Positions 1-57,477 of a stretch of 64,000 nucleotides of DNA are shown in pieces; position 1 is the stretch's first letter, and each line of letters starts with the position of its first letter. The position numbers and the translations under genes were made by a program. A model generated the notes under the pieces. It was not told the DNA's origin. It was given only the letters and a program-made list of their open reading frames with translations, and did no database searches. This DNA comes from a virus, in the IMG/VR virus record IMGVR_UViG_3300045988_023906. One strand, written 5' to 3'.

Positions 1-2133
1 AGGGATGATAGGGGTAGAATCATTGTAGACTTGGCTAATCCTCATATATTAGAGGATATGGATTACTTCAGACCATCTGCTATACATTATGAGAAGTATG
101 GTACATTTACTAACCTTAGACCTAATGCCAATCCTAATAGTGAATATGGTAAGTGGGTAAGAGAGGAAAGAAGAAGAATCTGGGATGGTTATGTAAGGGA
201 AAGTGATGGAGAATGGGTTACAGGATATATGTATTGGTTCCTTAATTATTCTCCTATGATGCTCTCTAAGATTAGAGAGTATAAGGATAAGAATGGTAAG
301 AAGAAAAAGTCCAAGAGGGCTGATAGAGTAGAGGCATTACCTGAATGTTGGGAAGGTATCTATTGGAGATTCCATTGCTTAGACCAAGCATCAAATGGTG
401 GTTTATACAATAACTTTGGGGGAGGTCAGCACATGGCTGAACTTGCTTCCAGAGGTAAAGGTAAGTCATATAGTCTTGCATCTATACTTAACCATATCTT
501 TGTGGTAGGTGAGAATGAGGAAGCACATGAAAAGGTAAAGGGTATAGTAACTGCCTATCAGAAGGAGTATCTTACTAAGGATGGTGTCCTTAATAAGTTT
601 GTAGATATGGCTAACTTCTGTGCAACCAATACCCAGTTTCCAAGAAAGAGATTAAAGAACTCTTTACAGGAAATGACATGGATAATGGGGTATAAGGATG
701 TAGAGTTGGATATTGAAAGAGGTACTCAGAATACAGTACTTGGAGTATCATCTAAGGATGATGAGTCTAAGTTGAGAGGTAAGAGAGCTGCTAAGATTCT
801 TATTGAAGAGTTTGGTACATTCCCAAGATTAGTTGATTTGTATAATGTGCTTTTACCTTCAGTACAGGAAGGTGATATTGTCTTTGGACAAATCTATATG
901 TTAGGTACTGCTGGTGATAATGAATCAGACTTTGCTGGTGCTCAGGAAATCATGTATAACCCTAAAGGTTATAATATGTATGCTTTACCTAATGTATTTG
1001 ATAAGTACAACCAAGGTAAACCTTACTTTGTATTCTTCTTTCCTGGCTATGTGAATAGAAAGGGATGTTATAATGAGAATGGTGTATCTGATGTAATTAA
1101 GGCTCTGATTGAAATTCTTATGAATAGGTATAGGGTAAAGTATAATTCTACTGACCCTAACACTATTATTAAGACTATTGCTGAGGTTCCTATTACTCCT
1201 GCTGAAGCTATTGTTAAGACAGGTGTAAATATGTTTCCTATAGCTGACTTGACTGAAAGAATAGGTCAATTGGATGCTAATCCTACAGAATATGATGGTG
1301 TATATGTAGGTGATTTGGTATTCAATAAAGATGGTCAGGTGGAGTATAAACCTACCTCTGCTACACCTATTAGGGATTTCCCACATAAGGATAATAAGAT
1401 AGAGGGTGCTATTGAAATATATCAGTTACCTGAGATTGATAGGAATACAGGTAAGCCATACAATGATAGGTATATATTAGGTGCTGACCCTTATGATGAT
1501 GATGAATCAAATACTATGTCTTTAGGTTCTATATTTGTACTGGATTTATGGACAGATAGGATAGTAGCTGAATACACTGGAAGACCTCCTTTTGCTGATG
1601 ATTACTATGAGATTTGTAGAAAGCTTTGTCTATTCTACAATGGCAGGCTGAACTATGAGTACAATAAAAAAGGTCTATTCTCTCACTTCTCGACAAGAAA
1701 TAGTCTCTATCTTCTTACAGATGTTCTTGATTTCTTAAAGGAAAAGCAGATGATGAAAGATGGCTATGGTAACAAGTCAAAAGGTACTAATGCCTCTCCT
1801 GCCATTAATGCTTATGCAAGGAGTAGATTGAGAAGCTGGCTATTAGCTCCAGTTCCTATTATGCAAACTATTGATGGAGAAGAGAAAGAGGTAATGGTTC
1901 CAAGACTATTTACTGTGAGGAACAGAGCACTGCTGAAAGAGCTTATTAATTACAACTCTGAGGGTAACTTCGATAGAATATCTGCTATGGGTATGTTGAT
2001 GCTTCTAAGGGAAGATAGAATGATAAGATACCAAGGAGATGTTAGTAAGGAAAAGCAGGAGAGGGCTAATAATAGCTATGATGGTAATGACCCATTCTTC
2101 AAGAGGAACTATGACTTTAGGTTTGGGCAGTAA
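1..2133 (+). CDS. terL: Terminase large subunit, 5' end probably off-window
   Basis: The frame is open from nt 1, and the ORF-track start at 31 is a TTG. Walker A-like ASRGKGKS, Walker B-like KILIEEFG and a nuclease-type acidic motif LGADPYDDD are present. A portal-sized gene follows. Confidence 0.9.
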   Translation, partial: RDDRGRIIVDLANPHILEDMDYFRPSAIHYEKYGTFTNLRPNANPNSEYGKWVREERRRIWDGYVRESDGEWVTGYMYWFLNYSPMMLSKIREYKDKNGKKKKSKRADRVEALPECWEGIYWRFHCLDQASNGGLYNNFGGGQHMAELASRGKGKSYSLASILNHIFVVGENEEAHEKVKGIVTAYQKEYLTKDGVLNKFVDMANFCATNTQFPRKRLKNSLQEMTWIMGYKDVELDIERGTQNTVLGVSSKDDESKLRGKRAAKILIEEFGTFPRLVDLYNVLLPSVQEGDIVFGQIYMLGTAGDNESDFAGAQEIMYNPKGYNMYALPNVFDKYNQGKPYFVFFFPGYVNRKGCYNENGVSDVIKALIEILMNRYRVKYNSTDPNTIIKTIAEVPITPAEAIVKTGVNMFPIADLTERIGQLDANPTEYDGVYVGDLVFNKDGQVEYKPTSATPIRDFPHKDNKIEGAIEIYQLPEIDRNTGKPYNDRYILGADPYDDDESNTMSLGSIFVLDLWTDRIVAEYTGRPPFADDYYEICRKLCLFYNGRLNYEYNKKGLFSHFSTRNSLYLLTDVLDFLKEKQMMKDGYGNKSKGTNASPAINAYARSRLRSWLLAPVPIMQTIDGEEKEVMVPRLFTVRNRALLKELINYNSEGNFDRISAMGMLMLLREDRMIRYQGDVSKEKQERANNSYDGNDPFFKRNYDFRFGQ

Positions 2134-2177
2134 ATTTAGTAAAAATGGAGACTGATGGTTAATAAATTACTTATATA

Positions 2178-2209
2178 CTTGCATAGGTCAAGGATTTTAC
2201 TTACCTTTG
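2178..2209 (+). promoter_or_regulatory. Bacteroides-type promoter (cTTG-N20-TAccTTTG) upstream of the GIY-YIG gene
   Basis: TTG at 2179-2181, a 20-nt spacer and TACCTTTG at 2202-2209. It sits inside the conserved block TTACTTACCTTTGCA, 21 nt before the ATG at 2230. Confidence 0.7.
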
Positions 2210-2229
2210 CACAGTAATTAAATTGAAGT

Positions 2230-2916
2230 ATGAGGAAGAGAGATTATACTGTATATTTACATATAAACAAAGTGAATAAGAAAGTATATGTAGGAATAAC
2301 TTCTATGAGGGTAGAGAATAGATGGAGAGAAGGTAAAGGATATAAAAAGTGTGAAATCATGAATAAGGCGATACTAAAGTATGGTTGGAGTAATTTTGAA
2401 CACATTATACTCTGTAAGACTTCAAAGGATAGAGCTATAATTCTTGAAAAATCTCTTATAAAATTCTATAAGAATAGGAGAATAAGCTATAATATCTCTG
2501 GTGGGGGAGAGGATGCAGGCACTGTCAGTGAATACACTAAAGAAAAGCTTAGACAATATAAGGGAGAGAAATCTTCTATGTTTGGTAAGCATCCATCTAA
2601 AGAGACAATAGAAAAGAGAATAAGTACAAGAAAAGCTTTAGGGCATTATTCTAAAGACACTTCATGGTTAGCTCCATACAGATTAAGAAAAGGAAAAGAA
2701 AGTCCTATGTATGGGAGGAAGCCAAGTGAAAACACCTTATTGGCCCATAGAAAAGTAATACTTCAATTTAGTTTAGATGGAGAATTTATAAAAGAATTTA
2801 GTTCAATTAAGGAAGCCTCTGGGGAGATTGGTATTTCCAAGCCAGCAATTGTGCATTGCTTAAAAGGAAAAACTAAAAAGGCAGGAGGATATAAATGGAA
2901 ATATAAATATGAGTGA
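2230..2916 (+). CDS. Free-standing GIY-YIG homing endonuclease (I-TevI/Seg-like) with NUMOD3-like and C-terminal NUMOD1/IENR1-like HTH modules
   Basis: N-terminal YTVYLHINKVNKKVYVGIT...R...GWSNFEH matches the GIY-YIG core. MFGKHPSKETIEKRIS and MYGRKPSENTLLAHRK resemble NUMOD3. F-SIKEAS-EIGISKPAIVHCLKGKTKKAGGYKWKY resembles the HTH module. The 3' end overlaps the portal ATG by 8 nt. Confidence 0.85.
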   Translation: MRKRDYTVYLHINKVNKKVYVGITSMRVENRWREGKGYKKCEIMNKAILKYGWSNFEHIILCKTSKDRAIILEKSLIKFYKNRRISYNISGGGEDAGTVSEYTKEKLRQYKGEKSSMFGKHPSKETIEKRISTRKALGHYSKDTSWLAPYRLRKGKESPMYGRKPSENTLLAHRKVILQFSLDGEFIKEFSSIKEASGEIGISKPAIVHCLKGKTKKAGGYKWKYKYE

Positions 2917-6353: not shown

Positions 6354-6545
6354 ATGTTCACTAAGAATCAAATAGAAGAAATTAGAGACAAATTGGCTCA
6401 GTTGGGAGTCAAGGATACAGAGTTTAAGGTAACAGAAGAAGCATCTGAAGATGATATGATAGCCATTGTCTCAGGTGGTGAGAATAAGATAATCCTGTTG
6501 AAAGACCTATTGAGTGAAGCAGCAGGTACTATTATTATCGAGTAA
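6354..6545 (+). CDS. 63-aa hypothetical protein, possible fibre N-terminal/adaptor fragment
   Basis: The ATG lies 1 nt after the previous stop. The DDMIAIVSGGENKIILLKDLL pattern resembles fibre N-terminal segments. The TAA stop runs straight into a 19-nt A tract. Confidence 0.45.
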   Translation: MFTKNQIEEIRDKLAQLGVKDTEFKVTEEASEDDMIAIVSGGENKIILLKDLLSEAAGTIIIE

Positions 6546-6562
6546 AAAAAAAAAAAAAAAAA
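6544..6562 (+). repeat. Homopolymeric A19 tract between the TAA stop (6543-6545) and the ATG at 6565
   Basis: Counted directly: A at 6544-6562, followed by GA then ATG. Confidence 0.95.
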
Positions 6563-14801: not shown

Positions 14802-14928
14802 ATTTTTTTTTTGTTTTCTCTTTAAATTTTATATGTGATATATGTTCCTTGCCTCTAGGCAAAAGATAAATAGTTTAAAAAGTACTAGTAAGAGTTGCTG
14901 AAAGTGCTTAATATGAAACACCTAAATT

Positions 14929-41029: not shown

Positions 41030-41043
41030 GGCAAAAAAAAAAT

Positions 41044-53318: not shown

Positions 53319-53328
53319 ACTTTTTTTT

Positions 53329-54219
53329 TTAGTTATTAATATACTTTCTTGCAATAAACTCTTTCATTAGAGGTTCTGCTAATTCCTTAGCCTGAGGATG
53401 TGGAGCACCTGTAGTACCTCTTGCTCTTAGGTCAAAGAAGTGATTCCAATCAGATACAAATCCAGTTACAACCAATTCTGTCTTTAAGGAGTTAGGTAAA
53501 ACAGCTCTTGCTTCTTGTGGTTTCCAACCTAAGTCAATCAAGTCAATATAATCCTTTTCAGCATTATTTAGACTGGCAATGAAGATACTTTCAAGAGATT
53601 TATCCCTTATTACAGTATGATAAGGTCCATATAGTTTCAGTCTCTCATCATCCAACCAACAGGGTTGAATAAATGTAAGCTCATTGCCAAATTTATCCTT
53701 GGAATAGTTACAATACCTTGTGCTTTCTTGGGCAAAAGACATTACTCTGTGCCTTACAAACTCATGTGATACGCCTCTATCACATACAAAGTGTACAGTG
53801 ATTCTCTTCTCATGGAACTCTGTAGGTTTACAGATATACTTTAAGTCATCAAGCCAGCCATTCTCTACCAATACTCTGTAGTTAGTAGTAATGCACTTAC
53901 AACTTCCATAAAGTATATCACCATGACAATTATATACCTCTGTTCCTTCTTTAACTACTGAATACTTATTAGACTTATATTTATCAATCAGCTCAGAGTT
54001 TTCAATAACATTGAATACTTTAAGATATACTGTACCATGCTCTAACATAGCACCATGACCAGACTTAATCATTCTATCTACAAATGACTTGGCAGAATCT
54101 TCTGTAATCTTGTCCTCTGACTTATAGCATATTCTGCCTGCTCTCTCTATCTGTTTATATACTCCTTCAAGTCCAGAAGGTTGTTCCCATATCTCAAATG
54201 ATGGTTTAATCAGTTTCAT
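53329..54219 (-). CDS. thyX: Flavin-dependent thymidylate synthase ThyX
   Basis: Signature EFVRHRVMSFAQESTRY (RHR-x7-S), with appropriate length. Confidence 0.85.
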   Translation of the reverse strand: MKLIKPSFEIWEQPSGLEGVYKQIERAGRICYKSEDKITEDSAKSFVDRMIKSGHGAMLEHGTVYLKVFNVIENSELIDKYKSNKYSVVKEGTEVYNCHGDILYGSCKCITTNYRVLVENGWLDDLKYICKPTEFHEKRITVHFVCDRGVSHEFVRHRVMSFAQESTRYCNYSKDKFGNELTFIQPCWLDDERLKLYGPYHTVIRDKSLESIFIASLNNAEKDYIDLIDLGWKPQEARAVLPNSLKTELVVTGFVSDWNHFFDLRARGTTGAPHPQAKELAEPLMKEFIARKYINN

Positions 54220-54240: not shown

Positions 54241-54621
54241 TTAATTCCATAATCCTATCTTCTTTCCTGCTAATTCATCAATAAAACAGAATCTAGTTCC
54301 ATCCTTCAAGGAATGTATATACTTACTGAAGTGTGCAATTAAAGGAGTCTCATTTCTTACCCCAACAACTTGCCCTGTTCTATATACTTCTTCACTAGAA
54401 GATTTCTCTGGGTCTATTCCAATAAAGAACACAACTTTGTCTTTATACTCAGAACACTCCTTACAGGCATGGTCAGAAAATCCTATAGCCTTCCCATCTA
54501 ACTCCTCTACTTCAGAAGCAGCCTCCTTTGTAAGGCGAGTGTTTGTCACAATTACCTCTTCAGCTACTCCTCCGCAGATTGGGCACATGTACTTGACCAA
54601 GGAAACTTTAAAATTATCCAT
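54241..54621 (-). CDS. Zinc-ribbon protein (126 aa)
   Basis: The start is moved to MDNFKV at 54621. Two Cys pairs are present, CPICGG...CKEC. The track start reads through the A20 tract as KKKKKK. Confidence 0.45.
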   Translation of the reverse strand: MDNFKVSLVKYMCPICGGVAEEVIVTNTRLTKEAASEVEELDGKAIGFSDHACKECSEYKDKVVFFIGIDPEKSSSEEVYRTGQVVGVRNETPLIAHFSKYIHSLKDGTRFCFIDELAGKKIGLWN

Positions 54622-54629
54622 TTTCTTTC

Positions 54630-54649
54630 TTTTTTTTTTTTTTTTTTTT
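54630..54649 (-). repeat. Homopolymeric A20 tract (T20 on the plus strand) between the TAA stop (54650-54648) and the ATG at 54621
   Basis: Counted directly. The minus strand reads TAA, then further A's, then GAAAGAAAATG. Confidence 0.95.
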
Positions 54650-54836
54650 AACCGGCAGTCTTTTTCAAGGCCCTTATACCATACTCTCTGACTCCAATTA
54701 GTTTGCATTTATGAAAATTCTCATCGAATAGTTTTTCAGCCTCAGAGATACTGTCGGCCTCTATAAACACTGTATCTTCAAACCCAAGCTTACCAATGTA
54801 GCTTATGAGGTAAAGTTTAATTTCTACAAGTTTCAT
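54648..54836 (-). CDS. Hypothetical protein (62 aa)
   Basis: ORF with an ATGA overlap to the upstream micro-ORF. Confidence 0.4.
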   Translation of the reverse strand: MKLVEIKLYLISYIGKLGFEDTVFIEADSISEAEKLFDENFHKCKLIGVREYGIRALKKTAG

Positions 54837-54940: not shown

Positions 54941-55089
54941 GTGCTAAGCATTGCTACTATTCCATTCTGACACCTATTAGCTTCCTCCCATGCTGACTCC
55001 AAGTCCTCAAATACTAATACATCACATGTATCAAGGTCTCTTACAAGTTCAATGCTTCCATTAAAATCCTCTATCACTACTGCTCTCAT
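54937..55089 (-). CDS. 50-aa micro-ORF (MRAVVIEDFNGSIELVRDLDTCDVLVFEDLESAWEEANRCQNGIVAMLST)
   Basis: Hand-translated. It has ATGA overlaps at both ends. Confidence 0.35.
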   Translation of the reverse strand: MRAVVIEDFNGSIELVRDLDTCDVLVFEDLESAWEEANRCQNGIVAMLST

Positions 55090-55835
55090 ATTTGCTTAAG
55101 TTTAGTGCGGTCTTCACAATCTTCACACCAACAATCATTACTCTCAAGAGTGTCTATAATCTGCCCAGTATTAGGGTTTATCCATGCTTGCACTTGAACA
55201 TTGGTACCACCACATTCACTGCAACAATACTTTGGTCTGTCCAAGACCTTTGGATAGTAGAGCAATGTTCCCATAGAGTTCTTATGAACATCTACATCAG
55301 GAAAATCTGCCTCAAACTTTCCTGAGTTAAAAGGCTTTACTATCAGGTGTTCCCCTTGAACTGTGGGAATAGTGGCATATAAATAGTCATCATTAACATT
55401 GAAATAGTGCTCTAACCACTCAACTATAGGCTTTTTCAAAGTTAAATCATCAATATCTATAATCCACTTGGACAATCTGGATTTGATTGTACCAGCAGCA
55501 CTATTAAGTACCTTTCTGGGATTCACAGCCGACATATTATTCAAACAAACATTATTAGCCAATGCAGCTAACATGTGTTTATTGACAGCCTCAAAGTCCT
55601 TCCCAGTCACGTTAATATATGCCCTTGCTCCATAATGTTCACAAAGGAGTATAATTTCTTCCCTCAAACTCTCAAGATGCTCCCTGCTTCTAATGAAGTA
55701 GGTTTTAATAGCACCTTCTTTGACCTTATCAGGCTTGTGGTCTTTAGCCCTTCGTACTATCTGACAATGAAAGAACATATTGTTTGCCTCATTGAAATAG
55801 AATAAAGGCTTGATTAATTCAAAATTGTCTATCAT
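55086..55835 (-). CDS. AEP (primase-polymerase)-like protein with a C-terminal zinc ribbon (tentative)
   Basis: KWIIDIDD is a DxD motif, TVQGEHLIVKPF a G-x-H motif and DVDVHKN an acidic third motif, with AEP-like spacing. The C-terminus has CCSECGG...CWCEDC. Confidence 0.3.
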   Translation of the reverse strand: MIDNFELIKPLFYFNEANNMFFHCQIVRRAKDHKPDKVKEGAIKTYFIRSREHLESLREEIILLCEHYGARAYINVTGKDFEAVNKHMLAALANNVCLNNMSAVNPRKVLNSAAGTIKSRLSKWIIDIDDLTLKKPIVEWLEHYFNVNDDYLYATIPTVQGEHLIVKPFNSGKFEADFPDVDVHKNSMGTLLYYPKVLDRPKYCCSECGGTNVQVQAWINPNTGQIIDTLESNDCWCEDCEDRTKLKQI

Positions 55836-55848
55836 ATTATTACTTTTA

Positions 55849-56397
55849 CTAGGAATTAACTTCCAATTTTAGTAATGCCTCATATAACTTTTGTATTTCT
55901 TCAAAAGTACAATTATTTTTAATTGTGTTTGCCCTATAACTAATAACCCAAATATTTCCTTTAGCATATCCTAGTGAGGGAATAATTTTATCTAAAGAAG
56001 GTGAATCATAGTTTCTTAAATTATCTCCTCTATCTCCCCTATTAGGTATTTTAAGATTAAGTTTAATACCTAAAACAGGGCACTCTGTAGGGATTACTAT
56101 ATCATCTTCACATATATTAAAAGGTAAATTAGATTTCTTAGCCCTTGCTTTAGCTGCTATAAACATTCTATGTTTATAAAAAGAAATAGGGTCTTCTAAA
56201 AATTTCTTCTTTACATAAGAATTTTGCATATTAGCAGCATATTCAGGGTCAAGCAGTCTTTTATTTATTTTCCATTGTTTATCATAACTTCTTCTATGAA
56301 GTTTTCTACAAACAGGACATCTCTTAGCATGTGTAGCTCTCCTACTTTCTACTATAAATTCTTTCCCACAATCAATACAAACATATTTTCTTTCCAT
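55849..56397 (-). CDS. His-Me finger (HNH-like) endonuclease with an N-terminal zinc ribbon, putative free-standing homing endonuclease
   Basis: CIDCG...CPVC at the N-terminus. CPVLGIKL...SPSLDKIIPSLGYAKGNIWVISYRANTIKNN matches the common phage HNH-like pattern CP-LG...SPSLDRI-P--GY--GN--vIS--AN--K. The segment is conspicuously AT-rich. Confidence 0.5.
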   Translation of the reverse strand: MERKYVCIDCGKEFIVESRRATHAKRCPVCRKLHRRSYDKQWKINKRLLDPEYAANMQNSYVKKKFLEDPISFYKHRMFIAAKARAKKSNLPFNICEDDIVIPTECPVLGIKLNLKIPNRGDRGDNLRNYDSPSLDKIIPSLGYAKGNIWVISYRANTIKNNCTFEEIQKLYEALLKLEVNS

Positions 56398-56470: not shown

Positions 56471-56812
56471 TTAATCAAGGACAATTTCAAAATCATCAAC
56501 ACACCAACCTTTAAGGTCATTGTATTGGTCATTATTGAACTCTCCCTTTACATATTTGTAGGCATCTTGTGGAAGTGTAATTTGCTCTTCTACTGCCCTT
56601 TTAAGGTCACATTTAGAGTAGTCTATATCCTCAAAATACTCACCATCCTCGTCCTTTCCAGAGTCAGTTATGCTATAATCGGATACTTTAATCTTAACAG
56701 TCTTACTAAGTGTGACACTTACTGTAACCTCAATTTCCCTTTCAGGATTATCAACCTGATTCCAGGGTGCATCTTTAGTATCTGCACCCATAGGATAATT
56801 ATAATTGTCCAT
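56471..56812 (-). CDS. Acidic hypothetical protein (113 aa) with the N-terminal YPMGADTKDAPWNQ motif
   Basis: The start codon overlaps the hicA-like stop (TAATG). It is D/E-rich. The motif is familiar from phage hypothetical proteins. Confidence 0.5.
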   Translation of the reverse strand: MDNYNYPMGADTKDAPWNQVDNPEREIEVTVSVTLSKTVKIKVSDYSITDSGKDEDGEYFEDIDYSKCDLKRAVEEQITLPQDAYKYVKGEFNNDQYNDLKGWCVDDFEIVLD

Positions 56813-57018
56813 TATTTTTTTTTTCTCCTTTTAATGTCTGTTATCAAGTTATTCTCTTTAATCAGTCTTCGAGCAATTACACATTCAAGATTCTTAGGCA
56901 TGCTGATATGCCTTCCCTTATCATTCACATAGATAGCATGGTCTCCATTATGTCTGCTATAATAGAAACCATTAAATTCCACTATCTTTATGAACTCTCT
57001 TGATGTATATTGTCTCAT
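56812..57018 (-). CDS. hicA: HicA-like mRNA interferase toxin (68 aa)
   Basis: TSREFIKIVEFNGFYYSRHNGDHAIYVNDKGRHISMPKNLECVIARRLIKENNL aligns by eye to the HicA pattern S-RE-I--LE--GF---R--GSH--Y----GR---VP......I-----L. Confidence 0.7.
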   Translation of the reverse strand: MRQYTSREFIKIVEFNGFYYSRHNGDHAIYVNDKGRHISMPKNLECVIARRLIKENNLITDIKRRKKK

Positions 57019-57019
57019 A

Positions 57020-57477
57020 CTACACTTTCAGAATGTCTTTATACTTCTCATAAGTCTTCCTTATGACCTCTTCCCCTATTGGATTAGGTCTCTTTGAGTC
57101 TCTCTCTATACAGTCTTGAAGAGGTATAAGAAGTCTTTGAACTCAAGGTCATACTTTGGTCTAACCACAGCAGGTACTATTCCTTTAGGATTGTTCCAAT
57201 CATCAAGCACTCTATTATAGTATTCTAATTCCTTGGGATTGAGATTCATATTGTCAATAACAATATCAAAACCATAGGACATAGAACTCCATAGGAAAGT
57301 ACTCTTCAAGTCCTTTACTAAGTCTTCTCTACTGGGAACCCAATACTTACCTAACATATTTCTGATGTCATCATTGTTGAATCTTACTCTATGTTCAGGG
57401 TCTTCAAGTGCCCATTGTTTAGCCCATGTAGTTTTACCACTACCTTGAATACCTCGGCATAAAATTATCTTTGGCAT
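57020..57477 (-). pseudogene. Pnk-like P-loop polynucleotide/nucleotide kinase interrupted by a -1 frameshift near 57127-57132
   Basis: P-loop CRGIQGSGKTTWAKQW. Frame 0 stops at 57106. The -1 frame continues LIPLQDCIERDSKRPNPIGEEVIRKTYEKYKDILKV, the canonical C-terminus of this kinase family, and ends at TAG 57022-57020, 1 nt before the hicA ATG. Confidence 0.65.

Follow-up and report, generated by a model that had tools for sequence, protein, structure and literature searches.

A HicA-family gene of crAss-like phages is paired with, or fused to, an acidic protein that is not HicB

The 64,000-nucleotide stretch of viral DNA considered here (IMG/VR record IMGVR_UViG_3300045988_023906, hereafter the window) belongs to a crAss-like phage, which a region match places in the Steigviridae/Asinivirinae; of the named genomes, cr85_1 (Kahnovirus) is the closest, with 92.7% over a patch. 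Within an array of replication and nucleotide-metabolism genes, with a DNA polymerase I gene on one side and a ThyX gene on the other, the window carries two small open reading frames (ORFs) on the minus strand. The first in the direction of reading is a hicA-like gene (56812..57018) encoding 68 amino acids, and the second (56471..56812) encodes an acidic protein of 113 amino acids, referred to below as the partner; the ORF scan and the raw sequence agree on their orientation and order. At the junction the minus strand reads ...GAC ATT AAA AGG AGA AAA AAA AAA TAA TG, in which the hicA stop TAA (56812-56814) and the partner ATG (56810-56812) have one base in common. This TAATG overlap, reported in the initial annotation of the locus, is present in both the ORF list and the raw sequence. 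Immediately before the stop lies a run of ten adenines (A10; T10 on the plus strand, 56815..56824, found by sequence scan), which codes for the lysine tail of HicA and also forms an A-rich leader for the partner ATG. Bases -15 to -1 upstream of long ORFs in the window are A-enriched (0.44 versus 0.32 overall). A sigma-70 scan found no promoter-like site above chance in or around the pair, Bacteroides-type promoters lying outside that scan, and no terminator-like site was found in or around it.

The 68-amino-acid protein (MRQYTSREFIKIVEFNGFYYSRHNGDHAIYVNDKGRHISMPKNLECVIARRLIKENNLITDIKRRKKK) belongs, on the evidence of its sequence, to the HicA family, and RNase activity is predicted for it. Its score with Pfam HicA_toxin (PF07927), 32.3 bits (E 1.1e-7), exceeds the gathering threshold of 27, and it matches PHROG 353, 'toxin', with E 7e-9. 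The initial annotation had made the HicA call by eye, and correctly; it had also taken G-D-H as the equivalent of the catalytic G-S-H, and the position is right. This triad is G25-D26-H27 (codons GGA GAC CAT; 56938..56946, minus strand). Of 86 related loci, 84 retain G-x-H and the other two are truncated copies; some relatives have the canonical GSH, and BLASTP against E. coli HicA aligned the NG..H region. The protein is basic (isoelectric point (pI) 10.1, net charge +8.8) and ends in a lysine/arginine tail, RRKKK. A low-confidence structural model, with a predicted local distance difference test score (pLDDT) of about 61-65 at residues 11-40, has a helix at 6-16, strands at 19-24, 27-31 and 37-41, and a helix at 42-69 (H-E-E-E-H). 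Its three best Foldseek matches in the PDB (1whz, 5yrz_B and 6g26_E) are all HicA, with probabilities of 0.90-0.96 and E values of only about 0.1-0.2. A phmmer search of PDB sequences with the single HicA sequence gave chance matches only and no HicA, and neither NCBIfam nor PADLOC returned a match for HicA, for the partner or for the cr106_1 fusion described below.

The hicA gene has been annotated before in this group of phages, as 'HicA toxin (mRNAse)' for Gp55 of ΦcrAss001 and as 'mRNAse' in IAS virus, cr116_1, cr106_1 and cr112_1. The HicA mRNAse of ΦcrAss001 has been reported among the middle genes, possibly degrading host mRNA (PMC8375218). Intact 69-amino-acid hicA ORFs that carry no annotation in the GenBank/RefSeq records are present in cr85_1 (L001 2777..2986) and cr128_1 (L004 2277..2486).

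The partner, which begins MDNYNYPMGADTKDAPWNQ..., is very acidic, as had been claimed (pI 4.14, net charge -15.5), and belongs to a large and so far uncharacterised protein family found in crAss-like phages. Searches returned 1534 homologous clusters at E <= 0.01, and a profile search of 1.84 billion representatives returned 813 clusters (50% identity) at E <= 0.001 and 189 at E <= 1e-10; we therefore take the ORF to be a real gene. Among the best 150 clusters nearly all are stand-alone proteins of about 80-130 amino acids, and one is fused. Nothing in Pfam, PHROGs, NCBIfam or PADLOC matched the window partner itself. In 147 diverse family members there was no match to a Pfam HicB model, no other consistent Pfam or PHROG family, and no C-terminal ribbon-helix-helix or helix-turn-helix DNA-binding domain detectable by Pfam. 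Alignment of the family profile by hhalign with E. coli HicB and with the class-1 HicB of Planktothrix phage PaV-LD gave a probability of 0.14% in each case, and a profile search of PDB sequences with the family found no match.

An AlphaFold2 model of the partner, built on the diverse 147-sequence alignment, reached a pLDDT of 88.2 and a predicted template modelling score (pTM) of 0.61. It has strands at 29-36, 47-53 and 59-64, helices at 70-77, 81-87 and 94-100, and a last strand at 104-112. Foldseek found no PDB chain matching this model at E <= 0.001 (best E 3.5, template modelling score 0.11), with the caveat that a very remote similarity with long insertions may escape detection; in BFVD the sole match was the cr85_1 orthologue. 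Judged by sequence comparison and by the predicted structure, the partner is not a HicB, and its modelled fold has no known match. That it shows neither a HicB signature nor a ribbon-helix-helix or helix-turn-helix tail, as first noted by eye, is borne out by Pfam, hhalign and Foldseek together.

The most constant part of the partner lies where the model predicts least structure. Residues 1-28 were modelled without regular structure, save for a short helical turn of three residues (16-18), with pLDDT 58-77 over residues 1-20. This stretch contains the linear motif YPxGAxxDxxAPWN, given for the window as Y-P-x-G-A-x-x-x-D-A-P-W-N (residues 6-18; 56759..56797, minus strand). P7, G9, A15, P16 and N18 are nearly invariant in alignments A1, A2 and A4, and the motif is also present in family members of hicA-less phages. 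An acidic hairpin at residues ~45-66 is an insert that short forms of the partner do not have, and the C-terminus is a beta strand with the pattern W-x-V-D-D-F-E-V. At two other loci (L054 885..1136 and L079 878..1129) an 83-amino-acid protein resembles the partner core (strand, helix, LP-like motif, W-x-V-x-x-Y-D), does not have the N-terminal YPxGA...APWN motif and is 22% identical in alignment A1; by sequence, it looks like a distant paralogue of that core.

Two separate genes are only one of the forms in which this pair occurs. Of the 120 clusters closest to the 113-amino-acid partner, 67 are in-frame fusions with a HicA domain, 180-183 amino acids long, with junctions such as ..RRKKIMDNYNYP.. 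or ..RRKKKIMDNYNYP... At TAATG-type junctions the state follows from the length of the A run, n. Where n mod 3 = 1 (A7, A10), the pair is split and the hicA TAA overlaps the ATG. Where n mod 3 = 2 (A8, A11), ATA ATG is read as Ile-Met and one fused protein results (..RRKK(K)IMDNY..). Where n mod 3 = 0 (A9), HicA acquires an extra NNGQL tail and overlaps the partner by 14 nucleotides. Both domains are intact in every tract state; only their linkage differs. A7 to A10 were observed, and A11 is deduced from RRKKKIM fusion proteins. Sequences that share at least 99.3% identity with the window across the 548-nucleotide pair include A7 (L106), A9 (L108, L110 and L111) and A10 (the window, L105 and L107), and L096, 98.5% identical over the same 548 nucleotides, has A8 and is fused.

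Both states recur. We read the fused protein P0007 on 24 contigs, which come from different projects and assemblers (the index gives 33 blocks of the collection), with A8 in eight of the eight places shown, and the exact 113-amino-acid partner of the window is found on 17 contigs. This recurrence, together with the uniformity of A8, argues against random homopolymer error and for split and fused states that are both real. Eight of 82 IMG/VR loci from a partner-based search are fused, and several different junction sequences are found among them, which implies independent fusion events. The pair had been described as translationally coupled. As a description of the window, which is in the split (A10) state and is not one ORF, this stands; it is only one allelic state, and many relatives, ΦcrAss001 among them, have a single ORF. 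We considered a phase-variable on/off locus, for which the length polymorphism is present, yet all frames leave both ORFs intact. Programmed slippage was not adopted because long pure A runs at the junction are not conserved across the clade.

The relationship to Gp55 of ΦcrAss001 extends the fusions well beyond near-identical genomes. Gp55 is a protein of 146 amino acids composed of HicA and a short version of the partner's acidic domain (MSNAPLGADEDPRAPWN...VDFDEIVILEE), and cr106_1 and cr112_1 encode the same kind of single protein. Its HicA domain is 69-71% identical to the HicA of the window. The annotation of Gp55 (YP_009910795) is shared by cr106_1, cr112_1 and the PhiCrAssBcn isolates. 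The acidic domain of Gp55 has the same N-terminal motif and C-terminal pattern as the partner, and the module in which the gene lies is also that of the window, with DNA polymerase on one side and ThyX on the other. The two differ in that Gp55 is one ORF with a short acidic domain (~76 amino acids, no acidic hairpin insert), whereas the window has two ORFs and the 113-amino-acid long form. The best 120 Gp55-related clusters are without exception fusions (120 of 120; 142-153 or 180 amino acids), down to 51% identity, and several occur on many contigs of ~100 kb. At the boundary between the domains a Met is kept in at least 95% of these 120 clusters, with variable positions next to it, and it is preceded by a conserved lysine/arginine-rich stretch with A/G-rich codons. 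Within Gp55-type fusions the mean pairwise identity is 83% for the HicA domain and 53% for the partner domain; the partner evolves faster, as antitoxins and regulators typically do. The mean net charges in the fused set are +7.6 for HicA and -9.6 for the partner.

Co-occurrence of the two genes is strongly asymmetric. Among crAss-type hicA loci in IMG/VR the partner lies downstream in 79 of 80 (in 67 the two genes abut or overlap, in 10 they are fused, and in 2 an inserted element comes between them); the single locus without it, L132, has a Thy1-like gene in its place. In all 37 GenBank phage records with a crAss-type hicA, the partner is adjacent or fused. Searching from the partner side, we find hicA at 82 of 87 loci in close relatives. 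Of the more distant members sampled, P0131 has hicA, and P0170, P0192, P0152, P0262, cr111_1 and DAC15 do not. Where flanks were long enough (P0170, P0192, P0262 and cr111_1), the partner lies beside DNA polymerase and/or Thy1 genes on crAss-like contigs. Thus crAss-type hicA almost never occurs without the partner, and the partner frequently occurs without hicA. Three readings had been offered at the outset. A non-canonical antitoxin partner fits both this co-conservation and the repeated fusions; a solitary, domesticated toxin does not, given that hicA almost never occurs alone; and an RNase for host shut-off remains compatible and matches the suggestion made for Gp55 in the ΦcrAss001 literature (PMC8375218).

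Several loci show what else can stand at the two positions. In phages without hicA no other toxin was found ahead of the partner, the upstream genes being a thioredoxin, small helical ORFs and a crAss_PVA homologue. In DAC15 (L192 1733..2011 and 1998..2243) the partner homologue follows and overlaps a crAss_PVA gene (portal vertex auxiliary protein, E 6e-26), and L092 (2207..2494), also from a hicA-less phage, has a weaker crAss_PVA match. In L042, L024 and L045, from other genomes, an element of 350-620 nucleotides is inserted between hicA and the partner; in L042 it is a NUMOD4-HNH_3 homing endonuclease, and the junction region appears to be a homing site.

In our view the two ORFs very probably cooperate physically, as one functional unit of crAss-like phages. 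This is well supported by their co-inheritance, by the overlap of stop and start codons, by several fusions that arose independently and by one fusion that is both deep and stable. The layout is that of a type II toxin-antitoxin locus, with genes that are adjacent, co-oriented, overlapping and co-inherited. As to what the acidic domain does in this unit, we favour, with a confidence somewhat short of even, a role as a non-HicB neutraliser or regulator of the HicA RNase, predicted to act in cis or in trans. We prefer this reading because of the opposite charges of the two domains, the faster evolution of the partner, the retained putative internal start, the precedents among HicAB systems, and the asymmetry of occurrence, which is the pattern expected if hicA needs the partner. 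Such a neutraliser would be analogous in function to small HicBs that have no DNA-binding domain and to the fused HicAB classes.

In this proposal a basic HicA endoribonuclease domain of the double-stranded RNA-binding type, with its G-x-H, would be combined with an acidic domain of new fold in one chain or in two. The window is in the two-chain state, its A10 tract setting the hicA stop on the partner ATG; in close relatives with A8 or A11 the same sequence reads as a fusion of 181-182 amino acids, and in the ΦcrAss001 clade the fusion has become fixed (Gp55, 146 amino acids). The acidic domain could mask the basic RNA-binding and active-site face of HicA, in cis or in trans, and a middle-gene RNase for host or early transcripts may in this way be restrained, or set free only in particular circumstances. 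Fixed fusions retain the boundary Met behind a Lys/Arg-rich tail with A/G-rich codons, which suggests that internal initiation at this Met may also yield free partner and would give an excess of it. Physical binding, neutralisation, internal initiation and RNase activity are steps that we infer. One could envision a more elaborate version, an unrecognised HicA module with a new-fold acidic control domain, in which the A tract and the internal start shift the population between single-chain (auto-inhibited or targeted) and two-chain (separable) forms; we think this unlikely.

A number of observations weigh against neutralisation. On the HicA side, the Pfam alignment is partial, covering HMM (hidden Markov model) positions 1-38 of 58, the N-terminal two thirds of the HicA model. 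An AlphaFold2 model of the natural fusion P0002, from a shallow alignment (79-98% identity), reached a pLDDT of 46.8 and offered no usable interface. The partner family is mostly hicA-independent, and its distant members occupy the position that the window partner has, flanked by DNA polymerase and ThyX, but follow unrelated upstream genes; the N-terminal motif and the acidity are unchanged with or without hicA. By this argument the primary role of the partner must lie elsewhere, and a protein found mostly without hicA is unlikely to be just a dedicated antitoxin. Finally, in a lytic phage presumed to make use of the RNase, an inhibitor permanently attached to it would be strange.

In a second explanation, the acidic protein serves chiefly in host takeover or in the replication module. 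HicA would have been added to it as an effector in one clade, and the partner would target or activate the RNase; the disordered motif YPxGAxxDxxAPWN would bind a host or phage factor. We regard this as possible but doubtful, for the role and for the motif alike. It draws on the breadth of the family (the 813 clusters at 50% identity, the best 150 of them nearly all stand-alone proteins) and on the polA-Thy1 position, which is kept in HicA-less phages. It would also explain a motif, fold elements and acidity that are alike in HicA-linked and HicA-free members, and a conserved motif in a low-confidence, unstructured N-terminus is like short linear binding motifs. The stable fusion of the ΦcrAss001 clade fits a working two-domain enzyme more easily than a permanently inhibited one. 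However, the binding target of the motif is putative, and the opposite charges and the conserved internal Met agree no less well with a neutraliser that is produced in excess. Rapid partner evolution is compatible with either role.

Alternatively, the two genes may be unrelated neighbours, the fusions being neutral by-products of an indel-prone, A-rich junction in a packed genome or, in part, homopolymer assembly errors. The junction homopolymer does differ in length among near-identical sequences, every frame leaves both ORFs intact, such that fusion may be cost-free, long A/T runs stand at other gene junctions of the window, and the partner is widespread without hicA. We nevertheless consider this explanation quite improbable, since fusions persist to 51% identity without a long homopolymer at the junction, their junctions have several distinct sequences, and the eight contigs of one lineage (L097-L104) all have A8, which argues against random sequencing error; moreover, the partner is missing at only one of 80 hicA loci, and adjacency survives the insertion of a homing endonuclease. 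Least probable is a hyper-diverged small HicB (a Gerdes class 1 split pair, or a class-11-like fusion without a DNA-binding domain) whose partial RNase-H fold is hidden by insertions: the overlapping order hicA then partner, a length of 113 amino acids just above the 67-97 of class 1 HicB (Gerdes, 2024; PMC10865869), the missing DNA-binding domain and a predicted order of three strands, helices and a final strand that superficially recalls the beta-beta-beta-alpha-beta of HicB all face family members none of which (0 of 147) matches HicB Pfam models, the hhalign values of 0.14% against both E. coli HicB and the PaV-LD class-1 HicB, an empty profile search of PDB sequences, and a confident model with no PDB match at E <= 0.001 even though the PDB holds HicAB complexes (6g26, 5yrz).

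The genes around the pair add some context. Immediately upstream of hicA in the window is a kinase gene (57106..57477, minus strand; AAA_33, PHROG polynucleotide kinase) that had been described as broken, and it is. A 1-nucleotide deletion (TTT to TT) leaves 123 amino acids, compared with 152 in the otherwise near-identical, intact allele of L106, which extends exactly to the start of hicA. The independent contigs L105 and L108 carry the same frameshift. RNA cleavage and RNA end-healing functions had been said to lie side by side. In the window the two genes do, but in ΦcrAss001 the kinase is six genes from hicA; this adjacency is thus not conserved, and any functional connection of RNA cleavage with RNA healing is no more than suggestive. 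The gene abutting hicA upstream varies, being an RNA ligase in cr116_1 (L005 1570..2498) and an HxsC-like protein in ΦcrAss001 (L088 1959..2501); in IAS virus (L003 1529..2998) there is an RNA ligase and then an HxsC-like radical-SAM protein that abuts hicA. RNA-repair genes recur near hicA without a fixed order.

Directly 3' of the partner the window has an endonuclease gene (55849..56397, minus strand; PHROG 3322, 'endonuclease') that is not at that position in L096-L104. Downstream of this HNH gene is a gene for a 249-amino-acid protein (55086..55835, minus strand; PHROG 14949) with a C-terminal zinc ribbon. Its counterpart in cr85_1 (L001 3352..3510) is only a 52-amino-acid ORF matching the zinc-ribbon end, which suggests a deletion or module exchange there. 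Other long homopolymers in the window are a T20 (54630..54649), an A19 (6544..6562), two T10 runs (53321..53330 and 14803..14812) and an A10 (41033..41042). The T20 marks another minus-strand gene junction, with poly-Lys/A20 just 5' of MDNFKV... in ORF 54241..54708. Long homopolymer tracts may be general indel-prone leaders in this phage.

Whichever role the acidic domain has, our analysis changes how Gp55 should be viewed. The 'HicA toxin' of ΦcrAss001 is a two-domain protein whose second half has so far gone unremarked; the paper we found that discusses Gp55 makes no mention of its C-terminal domain. The family to which this half belongs comprises at least 813 clusters (50% identity) and matches nothing in Pfam, PHROGs or the PDB. 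Annotations of Gp55-type proteins should name both HicA and a second domain of unknown function. Should the acidic domain prove to regulate the RNase, it would represent a new, non-HicB way of controlling a HicA toxin, and natural split and fused alleles one or two bases apart provide a ready-made test of such regulation. One could further envision that a toxin and its neutraliser, in a phage that does not form lysogens, aid the control of host shut-off or contribute to the unexplained long-term persistence of crAss-like phages in a carrier state.

HicA in crAss-like phages was known; a HicA module with a non-HicB partner appears to be new. We did not find the second domain of Gp55 or the partner, their family, or the split/fused polymorphism described in the searchable literature or in the part of the table of Gerdes (2024) available to us, and neither the text of that study nor the same part of its table yielded an entry for a crAss-like phage (PMC10865869). 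The nearest relatives in organisation are nonetheless found there. Fused HicAB arrangements and arrangements without a DNA-binding domain have been described (Gerdes, 2024; PMC10865869), and classes 1/2 and 11-13 share with our locus a hicA that comes first, a small overlapping partner with no DNA-binding domain, the existence of split and fused versions, and a known phage-encoded example, that of Planktothrix phage PaV-LD. They differ in that the protein paired with HicA in those classes can be recognised as HicB and has a partial RNase-H fold, whereas the window partner has no HicB match in sequence, profile or fold. CapRel-SJ46 and EzeT, cited as a paradigm for fused HicAB (PMC10865869), likewise hold a toxin and a regulatory domain in one polypeptide. 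Those are bacterial defence or addiction proteins for which inhibition in cis was shown experimentally; the HicA-partner unit, in contrast, belongs to phages of lytic type, its regulation is a prediction, and it toggles between one chain and two. Like homopolymer contingency loci, it has an A run whose length is polymorphic among near-identical genomes and shifts the downstream frame. Unlike at those loci, no tract state turns a gene off, and what changes is only whether HicA and its partner are linked.

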